A stretch of 64,000 nt of DNA, taken from an uncultured Kiritimatiellota bacterium. GTDB taxonomy: Bacteria > Verrucomicrobiota > Kiritimatiellia > RFP12 > DVOR01. Both the position numbers and the translations under genes were made by a program. The notes below the pieces were generated by a model. That model worked only from the letters and a program-made list of their open reading frames with translations. It searched no databases and was not told the origin of the DNA. The first letter of the stretch is position 1; every line of letters begins with the position of its first letter. Below, piece after piece: positions 3,159-55,628 of this stretch. The stretch spans positions 3,479-67,478 of the forward strand of contig CALXMT010000011.1 in NCBI GenBank assembly GCA_944389545.1, in the 5' to 3' direction.

Positions 3159-3165
3159 CCACCCC

Positions 3166-9253: not shown

Positions 9254-9570
9254 AATACTGTCCGTGGAAAATTGGGACCGCAAAGACGCGAGGGGAGGCG
9301 CGAACCGCTTCGGGCTCCATCGGTCGCTCTGCGGTTTCGCCGCTGACCGCGCCCGCCGCCCTCCGTTTCGCGCCGTGTCTGATAAGAATAGTAAAGATAG
9401 AAGGCAGTGCGCCACCAAGAAGACCAATCAGCGAATCAGCTAAGCTTTCAATTCCCTTTTGAGCACCCCTTCAGGGGTGCGATAGCGTGGAAATCCCAAG
9501 GGCGGCGTGACCCAAGGAATCGACTGAGCCCGTAGGGTTTCCACGCAAGACCGTCTTCGCGGAAAAACAC
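9254..9570 (+). mobile_element. MITE-like repeat, family A copy 2 (right terminus degenerate)
   Basis: Aligns along its whole length with A1, A3 and A4. The left TIR is ACTGTCCGTGGAAAA; the right end (GCGGAAAAACAC) lacks the full TIR. Confidence 0.7.
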
Positions 9571-11404: not shown

Positions 11405-13006
11405 ATGGACATCGACACCGCCGAACAGCTGGAAGGCCAAATCGAGAGCAAGGCCCTCACCCTCAAAGAACTCTTTGCCGAAGACCCCAACCGCGCAGAG
11501 AAGATGACCGTCTCTGCCGCCGGCTGGACGCTCGACTATTCCAAGAACCTCATCGACGAGCCCACCCTCAAGCTCCTCGTCAAGCTTGCCGAGAAGGCCA
11601 ACCTCAAGGCCGAAATCGAGAAGATGTTCACCGGCGAGCACATCAACAAGACCGAGAACCGCGCCGTCCTCCACACCGCCCTGCGCTCCTCCAAGACCTC
11701 CGGCCTCGTGGTCGATGGGCAGGACGTCTACGCCGACGTCCACGCCGTTCTCGACCGCATGGGTGACTTCGCCACCCGCATCCGTACCGGCAAGTGGCGC
11801 GGCGCCACCGGCAAGACCATCCGCTACGTCGTCAACATCGGCATCGGCGGCTCCGACCTCGGCCCCGCCATGGCCTACCAGGCCCTCCAGCCCTTCTCCA
11901 AGCGCACCATCAAGTGCTTCTACGTCTCCAACATCGACGCGACGCACATGGCCGAGACCCTCCGTCAGGTCAAGGCCGATCAGACCCTCTTCATCGTCGC
12001 CTCCAAGACCTTCACCACTCAGGAGACGATGACCAACGCCCACACCGCCCGCGCCTGGCTCGTCGAGCGCCTGGGCGAGGCCGCCGTCCCCCACCACTTC
12101 GTCGCCGTCAGCACCAACGCCGCCAAGGTCAAGGAGTTCGGCATCGACGAGGCCAACATGTTCGGCTTCTGGGATTGGGTCGGCGGCCGCTATTCCCTCC
12201 CCTCCGCCATCGGCCTCTCCCTCATGATCGCCATCGGGCCCACCAACTACAAGCGCATGCTCGCCGGCTACGAGGCCATGGACAAACACTTCCGCACCGC
12301 GCCCCTCCGCCGCAACCTGCCCGTCCTCCTCGCCCTCATCGGCATCCTTTACTCCAACGGCTACGGCGCCGACTCCTACGCCGTCCTACCCTACGACCAA
12401 TACCTCGCCCGCCTCCCCGCCTACCTCCAGCAGCTCGACATGGAGAGCAACGGCAAGAGCGTCGACCGCGACGGCACCCCCGTCGACTACATGACCGGCC
12501 CCATCGTCTGGGGCGAGCCCGGCACCAACGGCCAACACGCCTTCTACCAGCTCATCCACCAGGGAACCCGCCTCATCCCCGCCGACTTCATCGGCTTCTG
12601 CCGCTCCCACAACCCCATCGGCGACCACCACGACAAGCTCATGGCCAACTTCTTCGCCCAGACCGAGGCCCTTGCCTTTGGCAAGACCGCCGAGCAGTGC
12701 CGCGCCGAAGGCGTTCCCGAGAACCTCATCCCCTACAAGACCTTCGAGGGCAACCACCCCACCAACACCCTCCTCGCCGACGAACTCACCCCCCGCACCT
12801 TCGGCGCCCTCATCGCCCTCTACGAGCACAAGGTCTTCACCCAGGGCATCATCTGGAACATCTACTCCTTCGACCAGTGGGGCGTCGAGCTCGGCAAGGT
12901 CCTCGCCGGCAAGATTCTCAAGGAACTCGCCGATCCGGCCCTTCCCCTCGCCCACGACTCCTCCACCAACGCCCTCATCGCCCGCTACCGCGCCGCGAAG
13001 GCCTAA
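11405..13006 (+). CDS. pgi: glucose-6-phosphate isomerase
   Basis: Full-length PGI-like sequence (…[11 protein letters not shown]…, …ESNGK…, …[14 protein letters not shown]…); C-ending codon style. Confidence 0.9.
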
Positions 13007-13025
13007 CGTGGAAGGCCGACGCTTG

Positions 13026-13088
13026 GAGGCTTGAACATCAAGCCTCCTCTCACCGGGGGTGGGGTTCCGTGCCCCACCCCATTCTTTT
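13026..13088 (+). terminator. tandem Rho-independent terminator hairpins downstream of pgi
   Basis: Two hairpins, GGAGGCTTGA-aca-TCAAGCCTCC and GGGGTGGGG-ttccgtg-CCCCACCCC, followed by ATTCTTTT. Confidence 0.55.
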
Positions 13089-13127
13089 CCAAATACCCAG
13101 CATGTGTCTATCTTTGTGGAGAAAAGT

Positions 13128-13547
13128 ATGGAATACCCAATTCAATCAATCCTACGAGTCGAGCGCGAACCCGTTCCTGAATGGCTCATGGCGTACAAAA
13201 AAGGCGATCCTCTTGACTGGGACAAGGTTTTTGGATCTCGAACCGTCTTCTATCCGGGTTCATTCATTGACGGCGATATCATCAAGTATCTTAACCGAGA
13301 ACATCTGGCACATACTTTTGTCTACGTTGACTATATGATGCGCCGCGAAACCCTGGAGGACGACATCGCAACTTCTGGCCTATGGGGATACACAGTCTAT
13401 GATTCCATTGAAGTTAGGGAAGAAGACCTCTTCCCGATGTCTTGGACACCACATTTCTCATTATCCTCCGAAGAACGGCAATATTTAACGCGTCACTCAG
13501 ATTGTCTATATGTGCCTTCGCGCGCCCCGGGTCATGAAGATTTTTGA
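13128..13547 (+). CDS. hypothetical protein (low-GC islet); possibly the 5' part of a frameshifted gene
   Basis: ORF starting MEYPIQSIL inside a clearly lower-GC segment (~13050-14600). The next ORF begins in another frame inside its last 38 nt. Confidence 0.35.
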   Translation: MEYPIQSILRVEREPVPEWLMAYKKGDPLDWDKVFGSRTVFYPGSFIDGDIIKYLNREHLAHTFVYVDYMMRRETLEDDIATSGLWGYTVYDSIEVREEDLFPMSWTPHFSLSSEERQYLTRHSDCLYVPSRAPGHEDF

Positions 13548-13923
13548 ACGGAAGCCCGACTTCCCGGGGCGGCATCGGGCTGACCGCTTGGCAGTTCTCT
13601 TCCTCTATGAAGATGGATGCGCGGCCTATGACGCACTCTTTGCCTCCCACCGATATCCCGCGCCATTCTTGATGGTTGTCAAAGACCACGGCATGGGGAT
13701 GAACTACACGCATTTTGGCTATGGCGGGCACCTTGAGGAAATCGCGAGGCGAAGCGGCGTCTATCCCCGCTTTATCTATCTCGGTCCTTTCACGGTTTCG
13801 TGGCCATATACCAGACGACTCTCCACTTCATTCTTCGTCCATGCACCGACTTGCCACAACGACCTCATAAGGCGTAATATGGACTCTGAAGATCATTATC
13901 CTTTTCCTTTCCACATGGTCTAG
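13510..13923 (+). CDS. hypothetical protein; possibly the 3' continuation of 13128..13547 across a frameshift (pseudogene or sequencing error)
   Basis: Overlapping ORF in a different frame, same strand and same low-GC composition. A C/G-rich run (cgcgccccgggtc, ~13524-13536) lies in the overlap. Confidence 0.3.
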   Translation: MCLRAPRVMKIFERKPDFPGRHRADRLAVLFLYEDGCAAYDALFASHRYPAPFLMVVKDHGMGMNYTHFGYGGHLEEIARRSGVYPRFIYLGPFTVSWPYTRRLSTSFFVHAPTCHNDLIRRNMDSEDHYPFPFHMV

Positions 13924-13961
13924 GAAACTAACCGCACGTAGCGTTAAACAAGGAGTTCCTT

Positions 13962-14522
13962 ATGAACCGTAATTCTTCTGCAACGATTGTAACACTTGCG
14001 GTATTCCTTTTCTGTGTTACAACGCTTCATGCAGAGTTGAGCCAGTTCGACAAGTGGCGGTTGGAGGATGCCAAGCGGGAGTGGCGCAACGAGCGGCATC
14101 AAGGCTTTGACTTCCGCGTACAGCAGAACGACTATCAGATCCGAGATGCCCTCCGTCGCGGTGAAGAAGGTGATCCTTTTTGGGAGAGCGACTTCGATAG
14201 ATTGATGGAAGAACGGCAACGTACCCGGCGAAACCTTGAGGCCATCGAGCAAGCCAACGACGCCTGGGAGCGTGAGCGCCGCCGCGGCAGCAACAACCTC
14301 ACAGACCCGCTTGATCATCGCATCCGCAACACGCTCAACGGCGCAGAGTATGACAATAACGGATTCTGGAAAGATGACTTTAATCGCCAGATGCGGCAAC
14401 GGCGCGAGATTCGCCGAGACTCTGAGTTCCGCTCAACTCCACTCCATTCTCCCATTCTTGATGTCCCCTCCCCCAATCTTGACAATCCCTTCGACAACGA
14501 CTGGATCATTCAAGTTTACTGA
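13962..14522 (+). CDS. secreted hypothetical protein with internal repeats (signal peptide; two FW[EK].DF[DN]R.M..R...RR repeats)
   Basis: N-terminal hydrophobic signal-like segment (IVTLAVFLFCVTTLHA). The repeats FWESDFDRLMEERQRTRR and FWKDDFNRQMRQRREIRR are present; low GC. Confidence 0.45.
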   Translation: MNRNSSATIVTLAVFLFCVTTLHAELSQFDKWRLEDAKREWRNERHQGFDFRVQQNDYQIRDALRRGEEGDPFWESDFDRLMEERQRTRRNLEAIEQANDAWERERRRGSNNLTDPLDHRIRNTLNGAEYDNNGFWKDDFNRQMRQRREIRRDSEFRSTPLHSPILDVPSPNLDNPFDNDWIIQVY

Positions 14523-14726
14523 TTTACTACCAATGCAACGCAGGTCTGGCCAGGAAGATTGGCAATGAAGAAGCCGACCTTCTTCCAAGCCTAATCGCGA
14601 CATTCACGTCATTACCTCGTGCAATTACTTTTCGATTTGGCGGTCTTTGTGATCCCATTTTTCCGGGCGGTATTGGCAAAACAGAGGATGGCGCATTTTT
14701 GGTATCCTATAGAAAAAGGAGTAACC

Positions 14727-15674
14727 ATGAAGAGACGTTTCTTGACGCTGTCTTTGGCCTTGTTGGCATACGCCGGGCTCCATGCTGAGCCAACCTTTTA
14801 TGACGGTGTGGCGGCTTATGTGAACGACAAAGTCATCACGGTGGACACGGTGATGCAGGAGTTGCACAATGGATTTGACCTTTCGTCGGTGCCGCCGGCG
14901 GAACAGGCCGCACGCGTCCGGGAACTCTTTCCCGTGGTGCGCGACATGCTGGTGAACCGGACGTTGATTCTGGAGGCCTACGAGGCATCCGGAGCGGAAC
15001 TGCCGAATGAAGTGGTGAACGAGCGCGTGCAGGCCATTATCGCCGACCAATTCGGTGGCGATGAAGCGAAACTCAAAGAGGCGCTCCGCAACTCCCGCAC
15101 GACCCGCGAGGAGTGGATGAAGAAGGTGCGCGAGAACATCATTGTGATGGCCATGCAACAACTGCAGGTAGACCGCAAGATTGTCGTCTCGCCGAAGAAA
15201 ATCAAGGAGTATTATGCGGCGCACGCGGCGGACTTCGCGGAAGGCGCCGGGACACACGTGCACTCCATCACCATTGACCCTGCGGGTGGCGCGGCCGCTG
15301 CGGAGAAGGCCCTCGCTGAGCTTAAGTCTGGCAAGACCTTCGCGGATGTGGCGAAGGCTTACTCCTCCGACCCCCAAGCGGCTCAAGGCGGTGATTGGGG
15401 CTTTGTGGATCCGGCGACGAGCTTCGCCGCACCCATCGTGGAGGCCCTTGCCAAACTGAAACCCGGCGAGACCTCGGGCATCATTGAGATGGGTGAATGG
15501 CGCGCCATCGTGCAAAAGGTGGCGGAGCGCGCGGGCGACCCGCCGAGCTTGGCAGAAGCCTGGCCGAAGGTCGAAGCCGCGGTGCGCGCCGAATTGGGCC
15601 AAGCTCGCTACAACGAGTGGGTCGACAGCCTGCGCAAGAACGCCTACATCAAGAACGTGGACGTGAAGCTATAA
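14727..15674 (+). CDS. SurA-like periplasmic chaperone / parvulin-type peptidyl-prolyl isomerase
   Basis: Signal peptide MKRRFLTLSLALLAYAGLHA, a SurA N-domain-like region and a PpiC motif (GGDWGFVD). Start at the ATG preceded by AAAGGAG; the longer track ORF 14619 has no RBS. Confidence 0.65.
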   Translation: MKRRFLTLSLALLAYAGLHAEPTFYDGVAAYVNDKVITVDTVMQELHNGFDLSSVPPAEQAARVRELFPVVRDMLVNRTLILEAYEASGAELPNEVVNERVQAIIADQFGGDEAKLKEALRNSRTTREEWMKKVRENIIVMAMQQLQVDRKIVVSPKKIKEYYAAHAADFAEGAGTHVHSITIDPAGGAAAAEKALAELKSGKTFADVAKAYSSDPQAAQGGDWGFVDPATSFAAPIVEALAKLKPGETSGIIEMGEWRAIVQKVAERAGDPPSLAEAWPKVEAAVRAELGQARYNEWVDSLRKNAYIKNVDVKL

Positions 15675-29400: not shown

Positions 29401-30908
29401 CGCGGGATCTGAATCCGCGCAACGCGTTGGTGACGGAGCACTTGCACCGTGACGTGGACGTGTCGGAGCCGAGTGGTTTTGCGGCGGAGGTGTCGGCGGA
29501 GATTTCGCGGTTTGGTACGCGTGAGGGGGATCCGACGTTGCGTGAGATTCGGGCGCGGTGTGGGAGCAAGGCGCGGTTTTATGAGGTGCTGGGGGCGGTG
29601 TATGAGACGGCGGAGGCTGTTCGGAGCGGGCTTGCGGATGTGGTGACGGGGCGTAAGCGTGCGATGATGGAGAACGCTGGGCTTCAGGCGGCGGACTTCA
29701 TCAAGCACAATGCGACGGCGCGTGCGACGGCGTTGGGGCGGAAGCTCTACCTGATGGGGCGTGAGTTTGCGTGGAAGCTGTATCAGGAGGACATCGCGGC
29801 GGCGCGTGCGGAGGTGGAGCGTCAGCGTAGGAAGGCGAGTGAGGCGCGTGGGGAGGCGCGTGCGGCGAAGGCGCAGACGCGGAACGCCGAGCGGCGCGAG
29901 GAGACGGCGCGGAATCAGGCGTACCAGAATCGGTGGGGGCTTGCGGAAGAGCGTTTCATGCGCGAGTACGAGCGGGCCTTGTTGCGCCATCAGGCGGCGC
30001 GGAAGGTGTCCGACGTGCGCGAGAAGATGCAGGAGCAGGTGGACCTCTTGCGGTTGCGGGAGGCGAAGAAGCGTGCGTTGGAGCGCGAGCGCGGGGTGAC
30101 GTTCACGGCGTTGAAGGCGACGCTTGGGGTGGACATCCCTGCGCGGTTGCGTGCGTTGGCCGGGACGCAGGAAGACCCATTCGAGGCGGCGGCGAAGCTG
30201 ATTGCGGAGATTGACGACGGGTTCGACAAGTGGGTGAAGCGCGACCGGCGGGATCTGTTGGACGGGACGGAGCCCTATACGTATCTGAACGAGCAGGGCG
30301 AGCGGGCGTACGCCGAGACGATGGGGAACGTGCTGAAGGCCGTGGCGCGGGATTTGTCTTACGGGACACTGCGCGAGGCCTTGCTGAACGCGGCGGACAA
30401 GATTGCGCGTGCGAAGCCCGAGGCGTTGCGCGTGATCGTGGAAGGGAAGCTGGGGCGCGTGGCGCGTGTGTTGCGGTTGGCGCAGAACGCGGACATCGTG
30501 ACGTTGGCGCGGCGGCGGATCAAGAGCGCGTTGGCCGAGGCGAACAAGCGGCTGTCGAGCGCGAACTCCGGCATGCGGACGCGGTACATGACGGCCATGC
30601 GCAAGCAAGCTAAGGAGCTCATCAAGACCATGCAACTGGCGGTGAGCGCACAGGACAACACGAAGGCCTCGGAGAAGAAGCGTTATGCGATGTTGGCCGA
30701 GCGTGCGCGGCTGGCCGAGGAGCTGAAGGTGATTGAGAGCGGGAAGACGCCTGACGACTTGGCGAAGGACGAGACGCTGACCGACCGCCAACATCAGGAC
30801 GCGGTGAAGCTGATGTTCTTGGAGAAGTTTGGGGATCTGAGCTATACGATCGACCCGGCGGAAGTGTGGGCGAAGGCGGCGGAGGCCGAGGGCTTTGTTG
30901 TATCTTGA
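26406..30908 (+). CDS. giant hypothetical protein (~1430-1500 aa): N-terminal HExxH zincin-like motif (HLIGHELGHNLM), then long Glu/Lys/Arg/Ala-rich coiled-coil regions; possible toxin/effector-like or phage-derived cargo
   Basis: Single uninterrupted ORF. The coding strand is strongly depleted in C at codon position 3, with interspersed AT-richer blocks. Low-GC DNA flanks both sides (26317-26600, 30909-31250). The true start is uncertain: GTG at 26406, or near 26592 where the composition switches. Confidence 0.6.
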   Translation: MEVINDSRTFAKDLASTFLTSMVTLLLIERCAISQTCHLTNYTHSPKHCPQSITFSPIRLESPLPHGADGVFIHDRLGRRKDATGAIVDLIRVASSSGMGSTHLIGHELGHNLMSIARDAGVITEAQQKELDALFTDKNGKFDEEAFAEAFARELKRAFFETVQKRMEDVPATKAGRALRRVADFVVTLARSFAFWRQERGLDPVTGQPLQAGQVLDAFLKRERTAEDEATQVANAARAAEARATQEAMAKAPTQTVVDEDGTEVAYHEAERGDKSNKKASELNSVPKHDGIGEDVLDALDVMLRTEGDTTIYTREFGDVLLPFGRFLNQVPGLKGKGFLHILEERTGKDNLSVPAAVEVFLRSVEAAVRGKEIRALNQENRYAIDLDGYRAIIADNGDSREFITGYKIFTEAEKKKREQEKKEKEEERSDVETDAIRQSANYDPARHGRLRQEGAERLRERIAQLLAGRQVPKSVEELAQELEDLDIAHYRLLNAQKKAEENGASQEELDALQKDIDENRAKSKQVAKAKKKLNQQRAKERKLYGDPNEERRDHIKVWSGAPQEFAVPSLAYVGSGTGGNNEGRGLYSSGVRGVAQDKYARGALRWWEPYVQTGRIIFDGKVFDNARRFFNSLGDSLAGTFYTGDGLKRTADGNYLADGVAYSEDVVLLYAIARGLSYSAFRSEEFYEFILFQGRSATNLKDDRIHKKTLEYANDIYDTLDDYKNPEDREMAKFFADLVKTKLAKKKDWIAFWDSILKKAEPELVRTEDPPPAVMEQTWFTNRPEGDVSHLLNWFEAVTPEQMGWILDGARKAGFSEEEIAFLQRERIDDDDVLIEDGNRMPSGREMYMRLEAIAMMRDGRYGEMSFDAITTEELWKAHANVMGDIGRFASEFFVSADIDGMMYPVDYRHGNRDGRVSGWNYVAFSDEHLRVDHVYEYNPETDDFELKWHESEGGASLRFTETPLGQELVAEAFDAIVGSRVDLLLRPSRYYGNPYETRDLNPRNALVTEHLHRDVDVSEPSGFAAEVSAEISRFGTREGDPTLREIRARCGSKARFYEVLGAVYETAEAVRSGLADVVTGRKRAMMENAGLQAADFIKHNATARATALGRKLYLMGREFAWKLYQEDIAAARAEVERQRRKASEARGEARAAKAQTRNAERREETARNQAYQNRWGLAEERFMREYERALLRHQAARKVSDVREKMQEQVDLLRLREAKKRALERERGVTFTALKATLGVDIPARLRALAGTQEDPFEAAAKLIAEIDDGFDKWVKRDRRDLLDGTEPYTYLNEQGERAYAETMGNVLKAVARDLSYGTLREALLNAADKIARAKPEALRVIVEGKLGRVARVLRLAQNADIVTLARRRIKSALAEANKRLSSANSGMRTRYMTAMRKQAKELIKTMQLAVSAQDNTKASEKKRYAMLAERARLAEELKVIESGKTPDDLAKDETLTDRQHQDAVKLMFLEKFGDLSYTIDPAEVWAKAAEAEGFVVS

Positions 30909-31236: not shown

Positions 31237-31378
31237 GGTCGAGAAGGCCCCATAAAGGGGCTTTGGCGAGACCCTATAGGGGTCCGTGGTCAACCACTAT
31301 AGGGGTCGGGGTCGAGGCCCTATAGTGCTCCGAGGTGAGACCCTATAGTGGTCGGAGGCCAACCCTATAGGGTCTGAA
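31237..31378. repeat. array P1: ~6 tandem 23-bp repeats built on the palindrome CCCTATAGGGG (units …GAGACCCTATAGGGGTCCG…/…AACCACTATAGGGGTCGG…)
   Basis: Direct reading: period 23, a conserved CC(C/A)TATAG(G/T)GGTC core, no spacers. A homologous array lies at 47465-47605. Confidence 0.75.
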
Positions 31379-31387
31379 AAGAGGGGG

Positions 31388-32323
31388 TCAAAGGTAGGGA
31401 GAAAAGTCAGGGGGGAAGGGGGCCTGGAGGTCGAGGGGGAGGCCGGAAATGGGGTGGTTGAGGAGGAGGCGCCGAGCATGGAGGAGTTGGCGCGCAGGGG
31501 GATTGGGAAGGCGGTGGTCGAGCGCAGGTTTTCCATAGAGCGTGTCGCCAACAATGGGCGTGCCCAAGGAGGCGAGGTGGACACGGATTTGGTGAGTACG
31601 CCCGGTCTCGATGTCGCATTCCACGCGGGAAAGTCCATTCGGAAGGGTGGCAAGGACTTTCCAATGGGTGATGGCGCGTTTTCCGCCGGAGCGCAACACG
31701 GCCATCTTCTGGCGATTGGCGGGGCTGCGACCAATCTGCGTGTCGAGTGTGCCGGAAGGCGGCGGGGTGCCGTGGACGATGGCGACGTAGGTCTTGCGGA
31801 GGTCGTGGACGGCAAAGGCCTGGGCAAGCGCTTGATAAGCCCGATCATTCTTGGCAACGACCATGACACCGGAGGTGTCCATATCCAACCGATGGACGAT
31901 GCCGGGGCGCTTCTCGCCACCAATGCCACGAAGGTCGGGGCAATGCCAAAGGAGAGCATTGACCAAGGTGCCATGACTGTGGCCGCAGGCGGGGTGGACG
32001 ACCAGTCCGGCAGGTTTGTCGAGGGCCAAAAGGTCGTCGTCTTCGTAGAGAATAGAGAGGGGAATGTCTTCTGGGACAAGGTCAGTGGGTTCTGCAGGCG
32101 GAAGGGTGAGAATAAAGGTGGCACCGGGGATTGGCGCGGAGGAAAGCTTGGGCGCGGGGCGGCCCTCAAGGTCGGTGAGAAGGCCTTGTTTTGCAAGGGC
32201 CTGAATACGGGTGCGCGTGAGCTCGGGCAAGCGATGGGCAAGCCATTGGTCAAGCCGCCGCTCGGAGACACCCCCTTCGACAGTGAGGGTGAAGGATTCC
32301 AGTTCCTCGGGCGCCTCAGTCAT
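31388..32323 (-). CDS. RluA-family pseudouridine synthase (RluD/RluC-like, with S4 domain)
   Basis: HRLDMDTSGVMVVAKN catalytic motif, …GRTHQIRVHLA…, an N-terminal S4-like region. Start at MTEAP. Confidence 0.8.
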   Translation of the reverse strand: MTEAPEELESFTLTVEGGVSERRLDQWLAHRLPELTRTRIQALAKQGLLTDLEGRPAPKLSSAPIPGATFILTLPPAEPTDLVPEDIPLSILYEDDDLLALDKPAGLVVHPACGHSHGTLVNALLWHCPDLRGIGGEKRPGIVHRLDMDTSGVMVVAKNDRAYQALAQAFAVHDLRKTYVAIVHGTPPPSGTLDTQIGRSPANRQKMAVLRSGGKRAITHWKVLATLPNGLSRVECDIETGRTHQIRVHLASLGTPIVGDTLYGKPALDHRLPNPPARQLLHARRLLLNHPISGLPLDLQAPFPPDFSPYL

Positions 32324-33083
32324 ACCACACCTGCCAAAGGAAGAGTCCGCAAGCGGGCGCGGAGGGCACACGGGCCGTGCGAGGATTCCCCGGCGCGAGC
32401 AAGGCATCGACGGCCTCGGGCGGCTCTTGGCCGGCACCGACACGCAACAAAAAGCCGACCAGGCTACGCACCATCTTATAAAGGAACCCGTTGCCTTGGA
32501 CGCGGAAACAGATGCGCGAACCGCGCTTGGTCACCTCAAAGGCATAAATAGTACGGACGGTGGAGGCGATGGGACGGTTCGGATTGGCGGTGAAGGCCGC
32601 GAAGTCGTGCTCACCCACGAAGCGTTTGGCGGCCGCGCGCATAGCCGCGACATCGAGCGGGCGGACAATATGGGCGTGATAAAGCCGCTTGGTGGGAGGC
32701 ATCAAGCGCGTGTTCCAGACGTAGTAACGGTATTCCTTGTGATGGGCGGAAAAGCGGGCATGAAAGTCCGGGCCAACCTCTTTGCAAGAAAGGATGCGAA
32801 TGTCCGGGGGGAGGCGGCCATTGGCATTAAGCGCCATCTTGAGGCTGCGCTCGGTCATGCGGGTGACCAGGTCGCAATGGAAGACTTGGCCGCGGGCATG
32901 AACCCCATGGTCGGTGCGACCACTGGCGTGAATGTCGACGTGCGGGGCCTTGACGATGTCGGCAAGGACTTGCTCGATAGTCTCTTGCAGGCTGACGTAG
33001 CCAGGCTGGGTCTGCCAACCAAAATAGGCCGTGCCATCATAGGCACAGACCATCTTGAAGCGTCTGGGGGAAAGTGTATCCAT
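32316..33083 (-). CDS. truA: tRNA pseudouridine(38-40) synthase
   Basis: MVCAYDGTAYFGWQTQPG...RTDHGVHARGQV is canonical TruA; it overlaps the downstream rluA-family start by 8 nt. Confidence 0.85.
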   Translation of the reverse strand: MDTLSPRRFKMVCAYDGTAYFGWQTQPGYVSLQETIEQVLADIVKAPHVDIHASGRTDHGVHARGQVFHCDLVTRMTERSLKMALNANGRLPPDIRILSCKEVGPDFHARFSAHHKEYRYYVWNTRLMPPTKRLYHAHIVRPLDVAAMRAAAKRFVGEHDFAAFTANPNRPIASTVRTIYAFEVTKRGSRICFRVQGNGFLYKMVRSLVGFLLRVGAGQEPPEAVDALLAPGNPRTARVPSAPACGLFLWQVWYD

Positions 33084-42608: not shown

Positions 42609-43198
42609 CGCCTCTTCCTTTGAACCGTATAACGCGGCCTCAACGCACGCTTTCTGCGCCGCACCCGAACCTGTGGGCGCACGCCATGTTCCAACAACGC
42701 CGCCACCTGCCGTTGTACGGTCGGCAAGTCTATACCCGCGAGCACAGGTTCTGTCACGGAGATCAACTCACCTGAACCGCGATACTCATAAACATGGACG
42801 CGCCGCCCCTCGCCATCCGTCGTGACCTGACGCTCCACGATGTGCTTGCCACGCTCCAACAACAGCGCAAGGACGTAAATAGAGGCACGATCGCGTGGGT
42901 CGCCACGCTCCACCAAAATCCGCAACACCGTCTCGGCGGATGCTCGATGCGCAGTCTCTGAGACCGTCTCTCGCGATGCGGATGTGGCGGGAACGGTAAA
43001 CGTCCATGCGGCGGAGGCCGTTGCCCGTTCGTTGTCCGAAAGCGCCGAAAAGCACCCTGGACACAAATCGCGACGAGCGAACCCGCCCTCCGCCTCCGGC
43101 ATCAGCAGCGAGTGTCCCACGCCGCCCGGCGCGAAAGGCCGACCGCAGGCCACGCACCGTTGGGCTCTGGGTTTGAGGCGCCAATCGGCCACGATCAC
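42605..43198 (-). CDS. hypothetical zinc-ribbon protein (CxxC…CxxC N-terminus, Arg-rich C-terminus)
   Basis: CVACG...CPGC pairs; 4-nt overlaps with both neighbours. Confidence 0.4.
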   Translation of the reverse strand: MIVADWRLKPRAQRCVACGRPFAPGGVGHSLLMPEAEGGFARRDLCPGCFSALSDNERATASAAWTFTVPATSASRETVSETAHRASAETVLRILVERGDPRDRASIYVLALLLERGKHIVERQVTTDGEGRRVHVYEYRGSGELISVTEPVLAGIDLPTVQRQVAALLEHGVRPQVRVRRRKRALRPRYTVQRKRR

Positions 43199-46100
43199 TC
43201 CCCAAGCAGGCCGCGCAAGGCGTTCAGCCCACCGCGGACAGCCTCACGCTTGGCCTCTTTCTTGGCTTCTTTCTCCTGCTCCTCGGCGGTTTTCGGCTTG
43301 GCAGCCTCAGCGGCGGCCTTCGCCTCTCTTTCCTTCTGCTTCTCTTCCAAGATCGCGCCGCCATAGTTCAGCGCGGCGCCGAGCAAACCATCGTCCTTCG
43401 CTTTCGCGGCCTCGGCGTCATCCGCCTGGGGTTCTTTCTCGGCTTCCGCTTCGTTTTCATCCGAGCCGAAAAGTCCGCCGATAACGGATGTGGCGGCCTT
43501 GTCGATGAGCTCTGCCTCGGCGGCCTTCTTGGCGTCGCCGGTCGCCTCAGCCTTGGCACGCTTCTTGTCGAGATGTTGCTGCAAGCGAGAGACACCCACA
43601 GAGATGCCGGTCTTGGCGGCGGAGTCCACCAATGCCCCGACCTCGATGTTGGGGTCGTCGATGGTGCCGGTGATGGGCAAGGAGACCGGCTTGAGCACAG
43701 AGGTATCGGCGACCTTATCGCCCAACACCCCGTCAAGCGGGACAGAGAGCGTGTAGTCAATCGCCCGAGTGGAGAGATCGGTCCGCCCCTGACAGGCAAC
43801 CGTCCACTCGTCGTTGATGTCCACCTCAATCGGCTTGTCGGTGGAGAGCATGCCCTCCTTCACCTCGACCTCCAACTCCTGCGGCTTCATCGAAACCGCA
43901 TCGGTGCGCTTCCCGGTCGCCTCAAGCACACGGCCAAGGATACCGTTCGGCTGCAACGTGATTTCGCTTGTGGAGAGTGCGACATTGAGATCCAGCGACT
44001 GCAACGGATCCCCTTCGCCAAGCTCCAACCGCATCCGGCGGCTCTGGACGCTGATAGACCCTGTGGGCTCCGCGGAGCCCTTGAGAATCGGGCTGACCAG
44101 ACCCAGGCCGGCATCCATCAGCTCGGGCGTCACGTTGAAGTCCTTGAGCAAATAGTCGCCCTCCGGGATGTAAAGCACGTAACCGGAATCGGTGACCTCC
44201 AAGCGCGGGGAGAGACGCACTTCGCCACCGTTCATCGCCACCACCGCATCAACGGAGGCCTTGCCATCCTTCAACATCACCTGCGCCTCGCCCTTCGGGA
44301 TGTCAAGCCCAGGGACTGTCACGCGGTCAAACGCCACAGCGGCATTGGCCCGGCCATCGCGCAAGATTCCCTCCGCGCCGGACTTGATCGGCAGGACAAA
44401 CGAGAAGTCCCGCGCAATCCGCCCTTGCATGGCAATGCCCTGCTCGTTCGCTTTGTCCAAGAAGGGCAATTCCCAAATAGCGCCAAAGTCCGGGGTCAAG
44501 GTGCCATCCATCGCCACGATGCCGGACTCCGTGCCGAAGGAGCCCTTCATTGTCAACTCCACGTAGGGCGACTGCACCGCGAGTTGCCGCAGGAGGAAGT
44601 CCTTGCCCTGACCGTCAACGCGCAAATCCACATCAAAGGGAACCTTGAAAGGCCGCATCTCGCCCAGCGTCACCTTCAAGTCCTCCGAATCCACGGCCAC
44701 AACCACACTCGGCACCGTAGCCTCCAACGCAACCGGACGAGCCGTCAACGCCAAATTGATCTTGCCTTCCACGATGTTCATCTTCGCGGGGTCGGCAGGG
44801 ATCAGCCACTCACGCATGGCGTGCTCGGGCTCCACCCAGCCGGAGAAATCGGCAGTGACTGCCTCCCCCGTCGACTTGCCCAGCACATAGGTCAGCGAAC
44901 CCTCCACGTGCGAGGCCGCCGCCGTGTCAAACGACAGCTCCGTCACGTTCAGGCACTGCTCCGCGAAACGTACCTTGAAGGAGCCAGAGGCAAGCGAAGT
45001 CTCCTGCAGTCGGTAGTTCGGGCCGGTCACGTCAATATCCGTCACCTGGATATCCGTGGTTGCCTCAAACGCCCCTTCGCGCAGGCTGCCCCGCAGATTC
45101 ACCTTCGCCAGGCCATCCTTGATTTGGGGTTGCTCCAACTTCAGATATTCCGCCACCGTGAAGAAGTCGACAAGCGTCGAAAGCGTCAACTCGTTGATTT
45201 GCTTCGCCTCAACGTCGATGCCCTTCGCCGCCACTGTCGCCGTGACCAACTCATCACGATTGGAGGTGACCTTGACGGGGAAGCGCAGCGCGCCGTCTTT
45301 GGTCTCGCCGTCCAACGTCACCGTCACCGGCCCGGGCGTGGCAATCTCCCCGATGAAGGGCGCCAATGCGTTCAGCACCTCCTGGCTTTCCATGCGAGCG
45401 TGCAATGCGCCGTTCTCCAAATCACCCTGTCCTCGGATGTCCACGCCGGGGAACGTGATGCCCAGCTCGCCAATCTCCAACGCCAACAGATTGGCAGGAT
45501 CCACGACGATGTCATCCACGGTCGCGCTCACCTTAGGCAAGGTCGCCACGCGTCCCGCCTGCTCGGTCACGATGTCCGTTGTCGCAAGGCTGACCAAGGC
45601 GAGCAAGGCCTTGTTATTTCCGGGATTTCCCTTCAGCGTAGCAATGAGGTTCATTTCGCCCTTGTCAATCGTTGCGCCGGAAGGCAACGCCACTCCGAAA
45701 TCTCCCGCCACCTTCATAGCCTTCGCCAAGTCAATCGACAGTGCACTCTTCACCTCCGGCCAGACATCCGCCTCCGTCGCCGTGGCATCGACACCAACGG
45801 TCACCCACGGCGCCTCCGCTTCAAAGAACGCCGTCCGGAAGAAATCCGCGGGCTGCTTCGCCGCCAAAAGCGCATTCGCCGACACCGTCTCCACCTTCGT
45901 GTTAAGGGCCAAATCCAAGACCTTGCCGTCCACCACAGCCGTGATGGCATCGTTCAGCGAAGGCATCGTGACCTCCACGTTCACCCCGGAGACGAGCGGA
46001 TCCGGCAAGCCCTCCTTCTTGAACGAGGCATTCTTCACCACAATATGCGCCTGAACCGCCCAATCGGGCAACTTAAAGGGTTCAGCCGCGGGGGCCGGCG

Positions 46101-46740
46101 CCTGCGGTTGCGGGGCCGGTTGCACTTCAGCCACGGGTTGCGGCGGCTGCGGTTCCGGCGCCGGTTGCGCCGGTTGCGGCGGGGCAGGCGGAGGCGTGAA
46201 GAGCGCCACTGCAGGCGAATCCACCTCCACGTCCACCGTCATCTGCCCAAGCGGGATCAACTTCCACAGCGAAGAGAGACGGACCGACTTGACCTGGGCA
46301 TCGACACCCTTCGTCTCATCGCGATAATGGATGCCCTCCACGGATTGCTTCGTAAACCAACCAAAGCTCCAATCCGCGATTTCCACCTTGGCCGGCGCAA
46401 TGGCACCATTCACGATGTTCAGCGCCACATTCCGCGTCACGCCAAGCGACAGCAACGTCGGCAACAAGAGAATCAAAACCAAGAGAACGATGCACGTCCA
46501 CCCCAGCCACTTCAGCAAACGCTTCCACCAGGGTTTTTTCCCCTTGTCGGCGTCCTCCTTCGGAACGGCATCCGCCTTTTCTACGGCTTCTTCCTTTCCG
46601 GTTTCTGGCGCAGGCACTTCCGCCGGACTGGTGGACGCAGCCTCCTGCACATCCTGCTCGACATCTGCCGCCTTAGCCCCCTCCGGCTTTTCCACCGGTT
46701 GCTTGGGCTCTTCCTGCTTACCTACGTTCATCTCGTCCAT
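43195..46740 (-). CDS. AsmA/TamB-like giant envelope protein (N-terminal TM anchor, long beta-rich body, Lys/Glu/Ala-rich C-terminal tail)
   Basis: Lys/Glu-rich N-terminus, then a TM helix (WLGWTCIVLLVLILLLP), a ~1000-aa low-hydrophobicity beta-like region and an …AKAEATGDAKKAAEAE… tail. The family call is by architecture only. Confidence 0.5.
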   Translation of the reverse strand: MDEMNVGKQEEPKQPVEKPEGAKAADVEQDVQEAASTSPAEVPAPETGKEEAVEKADAVPKEDADKGKKPWWKRLLKWLGWTCIVLLVLILLLPTLLSLGVTRNVALNIVNGAIAPAKVEIADWSFGWFTKQSVEGIHYRDETKGVDAQVKSVRLSSLWKLIPLGQMTVDVEVDSPAVALFTPPPAPPQPAQPAPEPQPPQPVAEVQPAPQPQAPAPAAEPFKLPDWAVQAHIVVKNASFKKEGLPDPLVSGVNVEVTMPSLNDAITAVVDGKVLDLALNTKVETVSANALLAAKQPADFFRTAFFEAEAPWVTVGVDATATEADVWPEVKSALSIDLAKAMKVAGDFGVALPSGATIDKGEMNLIATLKGNPGNNKALLALVSLATTDIVTEQAGRVATLPKVSATVDDIVVDPANLLALEIGELGITFPGVDIRGQGDLENGALHARMESQEVLNALAPFIGEIATPGPVTVTLDGETKDGALRFPVKVTSNRDELVTATVAAKGIDVEAKQINELTLSTLVDFFTVAEYLKLEQPQIKDGLAKVNLRGSLREGAFEATTDIQVTDIDVTGPNYRLQETSLASGSFKVRFAEQCLNVTELSFDTAAASHVEGSLTYVLGKSTGEAVTADFSGWVEPEHAMREWLIPADPAKMNIVEGKINLALTARPVALEATVPSVVVAVDSEDLKVTLGEMRPFKVPFDVDLRVDGQGKDFLLRQLAVQSPYVELTMKGSFGTESGIVAMDGTLTPDFGAIWELPFLDKANEQGIAMQGRIARDFSFVLPIKSGAEGILRDGRANAAVAFDRVTVPGLDIPKGEAQVMLKDGKASVDAVVAMNGGEVRLSPRLEVTDSGYVLYIPEGDYLLKDFNVTPELMDAGLGLVSPILKGSAEPTGSISVQSRRMRLELGEGDPLQSLDLNVALSTSEITLQPNGILGRVLEATGKRTDAVSMKPQELEVEVKEGMLSTDKPIEVDINDEWTVACQGRTDLSTRAIDYTLSVPLDGVLGDKVADTSVLKPVSLPITGTIDDPNIEVGALVDSAAKTGISVGVSRLQQHLDKKRAKAEATGDAKKAAEAELIDKAATSVIGGLFGSDENEAEAEKEPQADDAEAAKAKDDGLLGAALNYGGAILEEKQKEREAKAAAEAAKPKTAEEQEKEAKKEAKREAVRGGLNALRGLLGE

Positions 46741-46810: not shown

Positions 46811-47139
46811 TAGTGTCCGGGGAAAATTGGAACCGCAAAGACGCAAGGGTGGGCGCGAACCGCTTCGGGCTCCATCGGTCGCTCTGCGGCTTCGCCGCTG
46901 ACCGCGACCGCCGCCCTCCGTTTCGCGCCTTGTGGTCTTTTCTAAAGAAGAAGGGTCGGGATGTGGGGCGGAGCCCCACCAAGAACTCCAATCAGCTAAG
47001 CTTCCAACTCCCTTTGAGCGCCCCTTCAGGGGCGCGATAGCGTGGAAATCCCAAGGGCGGCGCGACCAACGGGAGCGATGGAGCCCGCAGGGTTTCCACG
47101 CAAGACCGTCTTCGCGGTAAAACTTCCCCGGACACTATT
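46811..47139 (+). mobile_element. MITE-like repeat family A copy 3
   Basis: Full-length copy with both TIRs (TAGTGTCCGGGGAAAA…TTCCCCGGACACTATTG). Confidence 0.75.
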
Positions 47140-47152
47140 GAGTAGCGTCCAA

Positions 47153-47421
47153 TACTGTCCGGGGAAAATGGAGACCGCAAAGACGCAAATCTTGCAGGAA
47201 AGGTGGGGCGCTAACGCCGGGCGCACGGTCGTGCGCCCTCCCGCCCCCCACTTTCCTGCGCCCAAATGACTTATTAAGACAGCTCAAGCGCGAAGACGAT
47301 GGGCGGAAGGGAGCGATCAGCGGGCGTTTAACCCGTAAAGCGACCGGCGTTAGCCCATCTGGCTTCGCGCTTACTTGCGTCTTTGCGGGAAAAGAAGGCT
47401 TCCGAATTCTCCGGACACTAT
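47153..47421 (+). mobile_element. MITE-like repeat family B copy 2 (full length, ~270 bp)
   Basis: TIRs are TACTGTCCGGGGAAAATGGAGACCGCAAAGACGCAA… and …TTCCGAATTCTCCGGACACTATT. The first ~35 bp is shared with family A; the internal sequence is different and also palindromic. Confidence 0.75.
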
Positions 47422-47464
47422 TACCTCTGTCTATCTCTGTTCCCGCCTTTCCCAGGACACTACG

Positions 47465-47605
47465 ATCCGAGACCCTATAGGGGTCCGCGGTCAACCACTA
47501 TAGGGGTCGGGGTCGAGACCCTATAAGGGTCCGAGGCGAGACCCTATAAGGGTCGGAGGCGAGACCCTATAGTGGTCGGAGGCGAAACCCTTAAGGGCCC
47601 AGAAA
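47465..47605. repeat. array P2: ~6 tandem 23-bp CCCTATAGGGG-palindrome repeats (homologous to P1)
   Basis: The first ~70 bp are near-identical to P1 (GAGACCCTATAGGGGTCCG(C/T)GGTCAACCACTATAGGGGTCGGGGTCGAG…). Confidence 0.75.
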
Positions 47606-47690
47606 CGACCTAGTACGAGACAAAGGAGAAGTATGCGACTCTTCCTCAAAAAGGGTGTGATTGTCTAAAAATAATCGCTTACCCTAAAAC

Positions 47691-47717
47691 AAAAAAGCCC
47701 GCCGGGGCGGGCTTTTT
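47691..47717. terminator. bidirectional Rho-independent terminator (AAAAAAGCCCGCC-gggg-GGCGGGCTTTTT) downstream of pfk
   Basis: Perfect GC stem flanked by an A-tract and a T-tract, ~20 bp past the pfk stop. Confidence 0.8.
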
Positions 47718-47735: not shown

Positions 47736-49106
47736 TCAGGGGACGTAGAGGGTGGAGGCGGACTTGTTGTCGGAGGGGTTGAGGTAGTACTCCTGGCCGG
47801 TGGCGACAAGGACGGAGGACCAGAGGTTGGAGGTGAGCTCCACCTTGCGGCGCTCGATGGTGGCCAACGGAATCGGCACGAGGGAGTAATCGTCGTTCAG
47901 GCGACCGACGACGCAGTTGGTACGACCGGCCATGGCGGCGTGGGCGGCCATGCGGGCGAGGCGGTAGCAAAGAACCGCGTCGGAGGCGTCGGCGGGGCAG
48001 GAACGGATGGTGTAGGAGGGGTCGATGTACTTGACCGTGACGTCTTCCTTGCGAGCCTTGAAGTGCTCAAGGATACGGTTTTTGAGGTATTCGCCGATGT
48101 CCTTCTTGAGGATGTTGCCGGAGGCGTCGCGCCGCTCCTCGCCTTCCATGAGTTCCTGGCCGGCACCTTCGGCGACGACGATGACGGCGTGGCTCTTGCC
48201 GGAAGCGAAGCGGCGCTCGAGGGCCGCGAGGAGGCCATGCTCGCCGTCAACGGTGAAGGGCTGCTCGGGAATGAGGCAGAAGTTCACGACGGGGTTGGCG
48301 AGGGTGGCATAGGCGGCGATGAAGCCGGAGTCACGCCCCATGAGCTTGACGAGGCCAATGCCGTAGTGGGCGCCGAGGGCCTCGGAGTGGGCGGAGCGGA
48401 TGGCGGGGACGGCGGCGGCCACGGCGGTCTCGAAACCGAAGGTGCGGCCAACGAAGTGGAGGTCGTTGTCGATGGTCTTCGGGATGCCGACGACGGAAAT
48501 CTTCAGGCCGCGGCGACGGCACTCGTTGGAGACGTCGCGGGCGCAACGGAGCGAGCCGTCACCACCGATGGCGAAGAGTACGTTGATGCCCATGCGCTCG
48601 AGAGTGTCGACCATGCGGGCGGTGTCCTGCTGGCCGCGGGAGGAACCGAGCATCGTGCCGCCCCACTCGTGAATGGTGTCGACCTTATCCGGCGTGAGAA
48701 TCATGGGCTCGTAGCCGAACTCGGGGATGAGGCCGGCGTAGCCATAACGGAAGCCGTAGATGGTCTTGATGCCGTAGCTGAAGGTCAGAACCTCGACGAG
48801 GCCCTTGATGACGTTGTTCAAGCCCGGGCAGAGGCCACCGGCGGTGACGATGGCGGCGCGGGTGGCGCTGGGATCATGGAAAATCTTGCGATGGGGACCG
48901 GCGCTCTCAAGCTTGGGAGCAGACCCATACTTCTTGACGAACTCCTGAACGTAGCTGGAACGCACGCTCAGCAGGGAGTACATATCGTCCTCTTCCACGA
49001 AGTTCGTGTTCTTGACCGGAGAATCAACCTTGCACTCACCAAGATTCTCGGTGATGAAAGTAAACTTGGAGGGGTCGTTGAAAATACGCTCGAATAACGA
49101 AGCCAT
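47736..49106 (-). CDS. pfk: 6-phosphofructokinase (long PFK-A form, possibly PPi-dependent)
   Basis: …AAIVTAGGLCPGLNNVIKG…, …GYAG…, …MLGSSRG…, …AIGGDGS… Start at MASLFERIF; C-ending codon style. Confidence 0.8.
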   Translation of the reverse strand: MASLFERIFNDPSKFTFITENLGECKVDSPVKNTNFVEEDDMYSLLSVRSSYVQEFVKKYGSAPKLESAGPHRKIFHDPSATRAAIVTAGGLCPGLNNVIKGLVEVLTFSYGIKTIYGFRYGYAGLIPEFGYEPMILTPDKVDTIHEWGGTMLGSSRGQQDTARMVDTLERMGINVLFAIGGDGSLRCARDVSNECRRRGLKISVVGIPKTIDNDLHFVGRTFGFETAVAAAVPAIRSAHSEALGAHYGIGLVKLMGRDSGFIAAYATLANPVVNFCLIPEQPFTVDGEHGLLAALERRFASGKSHAVIVVAEGAGQELMEGEERRDASGNILKKDIGEYLKNRILEHFKARKEDVTVKYIDPSYTIRSCPADASDAVLCYRLARMAAHAAMAGRTNCVVGRLNDDYSLVPIPLATIERRKVELTSNLWSSVLVATGQEYYLNPSDNKSASTLYVP

Positions 49107-49191
49107 AAAATGTCCTCTCGTGTGCTCGACCCAAGGTGGGTCAAGTTGGCGTAATATTATACGGTTTTGCCTCGCGTCCGTCAAATCCAAT

Positions 49192-49459
49192 GGTGTCCGG
49201 GGAAATCGAAAAGCCTCCTTTTCCCGCAAAAACGCCAGTGCGCGCGAAGCCAGATGGGCTAACGCCGGTCGCTTTGCGGGCTAAACGCCCGCTGATCGCT
49301 CCCTCCCGCCCATCGCCTTCGCGCTTGGGCCGTATTTCAAATCCCTTTGGCGCAGGAAAGTGGGGCGCGGGAGGGCGCACGACCGTGCGCCCGGCGTTAG
49401 CGCCCCACCTTTCCTGCAAGAATTGCGTCCTTGCGGTTCCCGTTTTCCCCGGACACTAC
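49192..49459 (-). mobile_element. MITE-like repeat family B copy 3 (reverse orientation), flanked by a 10-bp direct repeat CGTCAAATCC
   Basis: Reverse complement of B2. The identical decamer CGTCAAATCC is present immediately outside both ends (~49179-49188 and ~49462-49471), consistent with a target-site duplication. Confidence 0.75.
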
Positions 49460-49473
49460 TGCGTCAAATCCTG

Positions 49474-55014: not shown

Positions 55015-55360
55015 GCTGCTAATAGTAGCACATCCATTTCCGTAAAAGTAAGTAAAATCTTTCCCCTTTTCAATCCAGCAACGCAAAGTATACAAGCCCC
55101 TCCAGCACCACCAAGCGATGCCTTCCAACACCCTTCACATCCTACCGCGTCACGGGGCCGCTTCACCGTTTCAGCGACGTAGGCTCCTGCTCTCCTGTCT
55201 GCCTGTGCACTGAATACCGCTCAAATTGGACCGGCGCCAACTGTTCTTCTGGCTCCGAGCCTAAAACCTTGCCATCCTTCGCCGCACCTGGCGCTTGGTG
55301 GAGGCGGGTCGCTTGACTGCCGCTTCCTGCTTCTTTGGCGGCGTCCATGGGCAACGCCAA

Positions 55361-55628
55361 TACTGTCCGGGGAAATCGGCAAGCCTCTTTTCCCGCAAAG
55401 ACGCGAGTGCTCGCGAAGCCTGATGGGCTAACACCGGTCACTTTGCGGGCTAAACGCCCGCTGATCGCTCCCTCCCGCCCATCGTCTTCGCGCTTGGGCC
55501 GTCTTTCAAGTACCTCCGGCGCAGGAAGTGGGGCGCGGGAGGGCGCACGCACGTGCGCCCGGCGTTAGCGCCCCATCTTTCCTGCAAGATTTGCGTCTTT
55601 GCGGTTCCTTTATTTTCCCGGCCACTAT
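55361..55628 (-). mobile_element. MITE-like repeat family B copy 4 (reverse orientation)
   Basis: Aligns with B3 end to end. Flanks share AACGC(C/A)A on both sides, a possible degenerate TSD. Confidence 0.7.

Follow-up and report, generated by a model that had tools for sequence, protein, structure and literature searches.

Ordered arrays of 23-bp palindromes form a dispersed intergenic repeat family in an uncultured Kiritimatiellota lineage

Introduction

Among the short repeats described from bacterial chromosomes, those closest to the elements considered here include REP (repetitive extragenic palindromic) sequences. These are extragenic palindromes that lie mainly between unidirectional and convergent open reading frames (ORFs) and also downstream of coding regions; in their two large super-families, a GTAG or CGTC tag stands unpaired at one of the palindrome's ends (PMC3733652). 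Where REPs are regularly spaced and alternate in orientation, they make up bacterial interspersed mosaic elements (BIMEs; PMC2817692). REPs can also form ordered tandem arrays, as in Pseudomonas fluorescens SBW25 (PMC3116915), and a tandem form of such an element therefore has precedent. A REP cluster of E. coli serves as a terminator in the 3' untranslated region (UTR) and as a stabiliser of mRNA (bioRxiv 10.64898/2026.03.23.713779). Here, the subject is a pair of arrays of 23-bp palindromic modules, array 1 and array 2, in a 64,000-nucleotide stretch of DNA from an uncultured Kiritimatiellota bacterium (GenBank assembly GCA_944389545.1, contig CALXMT010000011.1, positions 3,479 to 67,478 of the forward strand). 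This stretch, at its full length, is called the window.

Two further classes of bacterial repeat invite comparison. One is that of miniature inverted-repeat transposable elements (MITEs) with long inverted ends, of which the Correia/NEMIS elements of Neisseria and the ERIC sequences of enterobacteria are examples. The other holds the variable-number tandem repeats (VNTRs) of the type known as MIRU in mycobacteria, whose units are 40-100 bp long, are not palindromic, and often have small overlapping ORFs.

Arrays 1 and 2 are now confirmed to be two copies of a repeat family that occupies at least 70 intergenic sites in an uncultured, gut-type lineage of the Kiritimatiellota. This family is real, well-defined and abundant; it is ordinary in kind and unusual in architecture. 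Its members are probably selfish or tolerated palindromic elements, like REPs and BIMEs or like MITEs, that behave as VNTRs. The likeness to REP/BIME or MITE elements holds, while membership of either family is not established. With about one copy per 30 kb, the family adds an abundant and well-defined extragenic palindromic repeat to a little-studied phylum, and a full-text search of the literature found no description of such repeats in Kiritimatiellota. For annotation, the labels of phage promoter, iteron and CRISPR-like array are removed.

A family dispersed over one genome

To look for copies, a single genome from each species was scanned for a pair of neighbouring cores, written as CTATARKGGTCN{9,10}CCN{0,1}CTATA. 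At least 85 stretches were returned, 73 of them 8-kb tiles of a single metagenome-assembled genome (MAG), CALXOF01, deposited as "uncultured Kiritimatiellaeota bacterium BRZ_KQ bin80" and represented by contigs that, as seen here, sum to about 2.2 Mb. These 73 tiles hold 71 arrays of 3-8 modules each, with a mode of 5. The preliminary description of the window had offered a dispersed element family or an amplifiable satellite as ways to view the arrays, and had proposed that the 23-mer be counted genome-wide. That count bears out the dispersed family: a single related genome has no fewer than 71 arrays, spread over at least 25 contigs and standing beside unrelated housekeeping genes. Their density, about one per 30 kb, is the same in the MAG as in the window. 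Across 27 kb of genes that both possess, MAG and window are about 90% identical, so the MAG represents a sister lineage; there, the orthologue of array 1 lies in tile L055 and that of array 2, with four modules, in tile L069.

Unrelated genomes gave isolated single matches to the two-core pattern among the matches listed, and the family is likely absent from other sequenced species, as judged among those same matches. The pattern found single chance matches only, and no arrays, in 2.9 million viral contigs, and a complete scan of the JGI metagenome collection likewise gave single chance matches only. The sequence read for this work comprised the 64-kb window and about a quarter of the MAG (some 680 kb in the search for transposases), and the counts of unit types below come from about 295 units, those of the 71 arrays in the MAG tiles and of the two in the window (73 arrays altogether).

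Within the window, Tandem Repeats Finder reports a period of 23 at 31271-31372 (array 1, 4.5 copies) and at 47468-47591/97 (array 2, 5.4 copies). Repeat alignment gives register copies that overlap at exact 23-nt spacing, five over 31244-31378 and four over 47463-47600. Once the degenerate end modules are counted, each array has six head-to-tail modules and no spacers (Table 1), and the modules of both share the core CCCTATAG(G/T)GG. With at most one mismatch allowed, the core CCCTATAGGG matches ten times in the window, every time within array 1 or array 2; in 100 dinucleotide-preserving shuffles of the window, the expectation was 0.57 +/- 0.78 and the maximum 4, with none of the 100 reaching 10.

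Tandem Repeats Finder, repeat alignment and core enrichment thus confirm what the preliminary description had said of these two places, that each carries a period-23 array of six modules without spacers. It was also right to set CRISPR aside, since the units abut at the 23-bp period and the 8-9-nt linkers are a small set of recurring variants. Its statement that the first three units are nearly identical between the two loci holds for the first two modules, which on direct reading differ at 1 of about 46 positions; the third differs at about 5.

Two units of the window, at 31294-31305 and 47495-47506, do read CCACTATAGGGG, as had been noticed earlier. They contain CACTATAGGG, which corresponds to positions -7 to +3 of the T7 promoter, and from this came the idea that the arrays are promoters of the T7 phage group, served by a single-subunit RNA polymerase. 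However, the 10 nt upstream, CGTGGTCAAC, when read directly against the specificity region, TAATACGACT, agree at 1 position in 10. The T7-like unit is also a minority, at only 11 of 295, and the dominant units read TAGTGG at what would be +1 to +3. Further, the units are palindromic, occur in both orientations, and lie in a core-chromosome context (with the genes for PolA, LigA, EngA, NadE and phosphofructokinase, PFK), and the viral contigs hold no arrays of them. Among the window ORFs scanned, which were the 20 largest and those flanking the arrays, none showed an RNA_pol or single-subunit RNA polymerase domain. The promoter idea is effectively refuted, and the T7-like decamer in the arrays is a matter of chance.

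Anatomy of the composite element

When copies are anchored and aligned, the thing that is repeated proves to be an ordered composite of about 110-135 bp, and not a free 23-mer. Each copy has 3-8 palindromic 23-bp modules, typically 5-6, in the consensus order cTTTCTGAG - ACCCTATAGTGGTC - CGAGGTCA - ACCACTATAGTGGTC - linker B - ACCCTATAGTGGTC - linker C - ACCCTTAAGGGTC - CAGAAAGgg. Linker B occurs as GGGGTCGAG, GGGGGCGAG, GAGGGTGAG or GGAGGTGAG, and linker C as CGACCCGAA, CGCCCCGAA, CCACCCCGAA or GGGGTCGAA; recurrent pairings of the two define sub-families. Of 37 canonical copies, 35 have a core of exactly 85 bp from anchor to anchor. The order of modules is identical across loci, and the ordered series recurs at more than 35 unlinked loci. 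This fixed order and fixed core length, at dozens of unlinked sites, show that the composite has been copied as a unit.

These same facts decide against a view that the tandem structure, and the variation in copy number between strains, might otherwise commend. This is that the arrays are independent local satellites amplified in place, or iterons that mark a replication origin, the latter having been raised in the preliminary description. Independent amplification, of course, would not reproduce the same ordered modules and linkers, with an identical 85-bp core, at so many unlinked loci. As for iterons, at least 70 chromosomal loci beside housekeeping genes, in a genome of about 2.2 Mb, rule out an origin-specific set and exclude such a function. 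Both forms of this view are refuted.

The palindromic cores are near-invariant, and the linkers vary. The commonest units are CCCTATAGTGG (120 of 295) and CCACTATAGTGG (56 of 295). Classed by type, 120 units have the asymmetric form GACC.CTATAG.TGGTC, 56 the perfect 14-nt palindrome ACCACTATAGTGGT, and 25 the terminal form ACCCTTAAGGGT. The core palindromes span 12-14 nt, the last two forms being examples, with ACCCTATAGTGGT an example of the asymmetric kind. Modules M1 and M3, both of the type GACC.CTATAG.TGGTC, stand in the same orientation and are therefore direct repeats; an inverted end module, GACCACTATAGGGTC, is present in some sub-families only. Units are found almost exclusively in company, with 286 within arrays and 1 solitary, and no solitary element ends were seen in the window and the quarter of the MAG. 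Local expansion also occurs, as in MAG tile L010, where four consecutive units are identical.

The ends of the element are mutually inverted, as CTTTCTG...CAGAAAG or as CTCCGCG...CGCGGAG, and the inverted repeat continues inward into GACCC.../...GGGTC. The 7-nt end arms are 75.5% paired in register. The two tested helices (the end arms and the B/C linker helix) are jointly 69% paired in register, and sliding the partner gives no more than 53%. Outside the ends come degenerate outer hairpin modules, such as CCCC-TAAA-GGGG, and conservation therefore fades gradually rather than at a sharp edge. Both arrays of the window match this scheme, having a degenerate M0 or M5 together with conserved inner modules; array 2 has extra inner modules.

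Variation between strains

Orthologous loci were gathered from other metagenome assemblies by exact-protein look-up. At the array 2 locus, contigs that encode a 100% identical PFK protein carry 4, 5, 6, 7 or 8 modules. Array 1 is present in all six of the other strains examined, with 5 or 6 modules if M0 is included; core matches, among which M0 does not figure, number 4 or 5. In the MAG, array 2 has 4 modules and array 1 has 5, where the window has 6 in each. The number of modules at one locus thus differs between strains, and in this sense the arrays behave as VNTRs; this is the outcome expected from slippage or unequal exchange between direct repeats of 23 bp. As the number varies even between otherwise near-identical strains, the arrays could serve as markers for strain typing in metagenomes.

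Whole arrays differ as well. At three sites, orthologous to window positions at about 14.7 kb, 55.1-55.9 kb and 61.06-61.5 kb, the MAG has an array and the window has none. Two of these were aligned (about 14.7 kb and 61.06-61.5 kb), and in both the entire intergenic segment is unrelated between MAG and window, so the boundaries of the element cannot be defined there. The window spacer at 61060-61495, for example, has zero similarity to its counterparts in L011 (1918-2100) and L037 (1400-1800), where the flanking genes are about 94-95% identical; it carries fragments of two other repeats, families X and Y, described below, and the counterparts carry 23-bp arrays. A second spacer with an array in the MAG only is window 55105-55868, within L050. 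Intergenic repeat content turns over very fast in these organisms, and the arrays, together with families X and Y, mark intergenic regions that have been wholly replaced between lineages only about 10% diverged.

The preliminary description placed array 1 at the edge of an islet containing a giant ORF, and asked whether arrays mark the boundaries of other acquired islets. Array 1 is not such a boundary, because the strain-variable part of the 1500-aa ORF in question lies about 2 kb or more away, and the intervening sequence is conserved in six strains. For other islets the indications are suggestive only, in the case of array 2 in contig L102 and of an extra array in contigs L004 and L020. In L102 (3920-6371, a variant of window positions around 47.4-47.7 kb), array 2 is kept and both flanks are different, with an acyltransferase gene on one side and genes for a LysR-type regulator and an aldo-keto reductase on the other; array 2 is the sole sequence common to L102 and the window at that junction. 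The extra array (L004, 20430-20580; L020, 2921-3026) sits in a strain-variable segment that adjoins a gene for an Mrr_cat (Mrr-type) nuclease. The counterpart of this segment in the window, at about 13000-15000, has other content and a low G+C fraction, 0.50-0.54.

The 1500-aa ORF itself (window 26406-30908; about 3830-8434 in L001-L006) has a central section of about 2 kb that is replaced between strains, giving alleles of 1421-1535 aa. Other alleles match LPD1 or, weakly, LPD3 and MuF_C, which are domains of polyvalent proteins. The gene seems to be polymorphic and of a cassette type.

Placement, folding and possible functions

The window is core chromosome, with about 62% G+C and housekeeping genes for RecD2, DNA polymerase I (PolA), NAD-dependent ligase (LigA), EngA, NadE, an AddA-like helicase and PFK; a tRNA scan of the window found none. 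Array 1 sits between two convergent genes. On one side, the stop codon of the 1500-aa ORF comes about 338 bp before it; on the other, a pseudouridine synthase gene has its stop codon only 13 bp away, and array 1 is therefore probably in the 3' UTR of that gene. In other strains (L001-L006), the synthase is called at 311 aa, which places its start near 32323, inside the longest ORF given in Table 1. Array 2 lies 137 bp downstream of the PFK stop codon. Here, a canonical terminator stands between gene and array, so the array is not needed to end PFK transcription.

Table 1. Coordinates in the window of the two arrays, their modules and the neighbouring features
Feature	Position	Strand	Remarks
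Array 1	31246..31374	.	six modules at 23-bp spacing
Array 1, M0	31246-31261		GGCCCCATAAAGGGGC, degenerate
Array 1, M1	31270-31284		GACCCTATAGGGGTC
Array 1, M2	31292-31307		AACCACTATAGGGGTC
Array 1, M3	31316-31330		GGCCCTATAGTGCTC
Array 1, M4	31339-31353		GACCCTATAGTGGTC
Array 1, M5	31361-31374		AACCCTATAGGGTC
Array 2	47471..47599	.	six modules; Tandem Repeats Finder and repeat alignment
Array 2, first module	47471-47485		GACCCTATAGGGGTC
Array 2, terminal module	47586-47599		AACCCTTAAGGGCC
Array 2, canonical right arm	47600-47606		CAGAAAC
1500-aa ORF	26406..30908	+	no Pfam domain; converges on array 1
Pseudouridine synthase gene (PseudoU_synth_2)	31388..32443	-	longest ORF; Pfam E = 9e-35
PFK intrinsic terminator	47692..47717	-	11-bp stem, then T run; between PFK and array 2
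Phosphofructokinase gene (PFK, 456 aa)	47736..49106	-	Pfam PFK E = 4e-60; exact-protein look-up
Families X and Y, stacked beside array 2	46996..47422	.	BLAST against window and MAG tiles; separate from the 23-bp family

Gene contexts across the family come from a codon-usage gene caller trained on these data. This caller misses some genes (for example, 25042-26316), and the context classes are therefore approximate. All 59 scorable arrays are intergenic, in sampled DNA of which 21.7% is non-coding. Convergent spacers have 19 of them, divergent spacers 9 and tandem spacers 31, where the numbers of intergenic regions would predict 8.6, 7.2 and 43.2 (p = 2e-4); per base pair, convergent spacers are less strongly enriched (p = 0.085). 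Between co-directional genes, 15 arrays have the orientation of the flanking genes and 17 the opposite one (p = 0.86). Many copies begin 0-50 bp from a stop codon, and 21 of 32 arrays are nearer the upstream stop codon than the downstream start codon, a difference that is not significant.

As RNA, both strands of both window arrays are predicted to fold far better than shuffled sequences, with z from -4.0 to -5.6; for array 2 as single-stranded DNA, z is -3.0. The predicted folds join modules to one another and also pair them internally, and the whole element can form one long hairpin. Compensatory covariation in the end arms and the B/C linker helix does not exceed that of shuffles, with 69.0% of cells paired against 69.2%, and double changes number 26 against 18.5 +/- 5.1, a value reached in 50 of 500 shuffles. 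Even the suggestive pairs of arms, CTTTCTG/CAGAAAG and CTCCGCG/CGCGGAG, did not beat the shuffle control. Thus, an inverted repeat is present, with no excess of covariation that would speak for selection on its folding.

Rfam at its gathering thresholds gives no family anywhere in the window, and in E-value mode it returns, for the two loci, only chance matches to terminator tails and long hairpins. Neither window array contains a promoter-like site or a T-tract terminator. The 23-bp period does equal the start-to-start spacing of -35 and -10 hexamers, yet with no promoter-like site inside the arrays, a sigma-70 promoter reading was rejected.

These results can be brought to bear on the view that the arrays are genes for structured small RNAs, or dedicated transcription terminators, which would be transcribed in one direction to give RNA hairpins. 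The great stability of the folds, the many copies that begin close behind a stop codon, and the enrichment in convergent spacers are what such a view would lead one to look for. However, the orientation of the arrays is random with respect to flanking genes, and the arrays have within them neither a promoter-like site nor a T-tract. PFK has its own canonical terminator ahead of array 2, and nine copies lie in divergent, promoter-side spacers. With neither an Rfam match nor compensatory covariation to add, a role of this kind is very unlikely.

The main live alternative, itself improbable, is a protein-binding platform. Here, each 14-16-bp palindrome would be the site of a dimer, the 23-bp spacing (about 2.2 helical turns) would align the dimers, and arrays would be kept for the protein that binds them, which might be nucleoid-associated or regulatory, or might be a recombinase of the element itself. 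A platform would agree with near-invariant cores set among variable linkers, with exact 23-bp phasing and an 85-bp core kept in nearly every canonical copy, and with units that are essentially never solitary; moreover, random orientation and a lack of covariation fit recognition of double-stranded DNA better than they fit a constraint on RNA structure. However, the analysis yielded no candidate for such a protein. DNA-binding genes do not consistently accompany the arrays, whose neighbours are unrelated housekeeping genes. Nor is the number of modules tightly constrained, as it is free to vary from 4 to 8 between near-identical strains, and promoter-side (divergent) spacers are not favoured.

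Comparison with known repeat systems

The preferred reading, that of a selfish or tolerated element like REP/BIME or MITE sequences, draws on a combination of properties. Strict avoidance of genes, occurrence in both orientations, sub-families, inverted ends and a narrow range of lineages together form the signature of an element of the REP/BIME/REPIN kind or the MITE kind.

With the RAYT-associated REP, BIME and REPIN sequences of enterobacteria and Pseudomonas, the 23-bp family shares short, GC-rich, imperfect palindromes present in high copy number and strictly outside genes. Both are favoured between convergent and co-directional genes and downstream of ORFs (PMC3733652, PMC2817692, PMC3116915). 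Both also build regularly spaced composite mosaics, ordered tandem arrays among them, vary between strains, and give stable hairpins when transcribed. The differences are equally clear. The 23-bp family has no GTAG or CGTC tag, and its core is shorter (14-16 nt) and centred on TATA. It is almost never solitary or a doublet, as REPs may be, but is an obligate array of 3-8 modules in fixed order. Its spacing is as regular as that of BIMEs, whereas its asymmetric modules are direct and not alternating. Finally, no RAYT matched in about 680 kb searched with unverified queries.

MITEs offer the likeness of a defined size (about 110-135 bp), terminal inverted repeats, one long hairpin that can form, and intergenic copies that number from tens to hundreds, lie in either orientation and divide into sub-families. 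In contrast to MITEs, the 23-bp family has shown neither a target-site duplication nor a sharp boundary, its interior is made of tandem 23-bp modules and not of unique sequence, and no parent insertion sequence was identified within the window and the quarter of the MAG. Like the MIRU-type VNTRs of mycobacteria and the STAR elements of Staphylococcus aureus, the family has short tandem units at many intergenic loci, in strain-variable number, with use as typing markers; unlike MIRU units, its own are 23-bp palindromes and come in a fixed order with inverted-repeat ends.

Under the preferred reading, the composite would have spread by copy-and-paste, through an enzyme acting in trans, as has been proposed for REP/REPIN and MITE elements, and insertions would persist only where genes stay intact. 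Modules would then be gained and lost by replication slippage or by unequal recombination between 23-bp modules. Where an element is transcribed within a 3' UTR, as array 1 might be in that of the pseudouridine synthase gene, it would fold into very stable hairpins, and these could block exonucleases or attenuate read-through, as REP clusters of E. coli do. The copies would also supply homology for rearrangements.

Several points weigh against this reading. Some concern mobility. Unverified queries for E. coli RayT and IS200 TnpA, run with phmmer against six-frame ORFs of the roughly 680 kb, gave a best E above 1. A single gene, in L017, has an array on either side; judged by eye it resembles one for a leucine-rich-repeat protein, and the transposase queries left it unmatched. 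Target-site duplications were sought as direct repeats of at least 3 bp over a range of boundary offsets; no consistent one was found, and the best matches fell inside the conserved arms. No sharp boundary of the element was found either, and no clean empty site between the lineages, with two of the three candidate sites aligned. Others concern the likeness itself. On direct reading, GTAG, CTAC, CGTC and GACG are all missing from the 85-bp consensus core, and M1 and M3 do not alternate as the modules of BIMEs do. To these must be added the weaker convergent enrichment per base pair and the covariation that matched shuffles, both given above, and the fact that a role in 3' UTRs is an analogy only.

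Having no GTAG or CGTC tag, being obligately tandem and keeping a fixed order, the family is a misfit with the two large REP super-families. A bolder possibility, and an unlikely one, is that it represents a class of REP-like element not described before, without a tag and needing no RAYT, in which the obligate form is a phased array, fixed in its order and built of five or six palindromes centred on TATA, with a dedicated protein partner. If this were true, the partner in Kiritimatiellota could be either a new mobilising enzyme or an architectural protein that reads the 23-bp phasing genome-wide. The array, and not the single palindrome, would then be the functional and replicative unit.

Other repeats in the same genomes

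Two longer repeats are neighbours of the arrays. Family X, of about 145 bp, has four copies in the window (46996-47140, 3583-3729, 9435-9568 and 61347-61482) with 89-95% identity. Many more copies are found in the MAG tiles, often within about 150 bp of a 23-bp array. Family Y, of about 275 bp, has three full copies in the window (47150-47422, 49189-49461 and 55359-55632) with 87-88% identity, and it also occurs in L047, L013 and L075. Inverted repeats, such as TTCCCCGGACACTATTG / CAATACTGTCCGGGGAA, crowd its sequence, and it may be a MITE or a structured RNA. Neither family has an Rfam match. Contigs L100 and L106-L110 end inside the repeat-rich spacer that carries array 2, X and Y, and for this reason short-read assemblies of the organism may be interrupted by intergenic repeats, whether the arrays or the adjacent X and Y.

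Directly beside arrays there also recurs a GC-rich hairpin, GGGGCGC-TGAC-GCGCCCC, with relatives of the form GGGGCGGC-nnnn-GCCGCCCC, seen in MAG tiles L018, L029, L036, L037, L071, L075 and L077. It may be another small family of palindromic repeats, or a set of terminators. Tandem arrays of an unrelated kind, built on cores of the CTATAGGG type, occur in the JGI contigs L118 (around 292), L126 (around 3272 and 3730) and L157 (around 3788). One in L126, for example, reads CCACTATAGGGAGGTTC with a period of about 25; the linkers of the JGI arrays differ, and these arrays fall outside the 23-bp family.

Lastly, the window has two 45-bp tandem repeats of 2.0-2.4 copies, at 3158-3264 and 46081-46168. 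The second is inside a 1181-aa ORF (43195-46740) that has no Pfam domain, and the first coincides in part with long ORFs whose status is uncertain; each probably lies within a protein.

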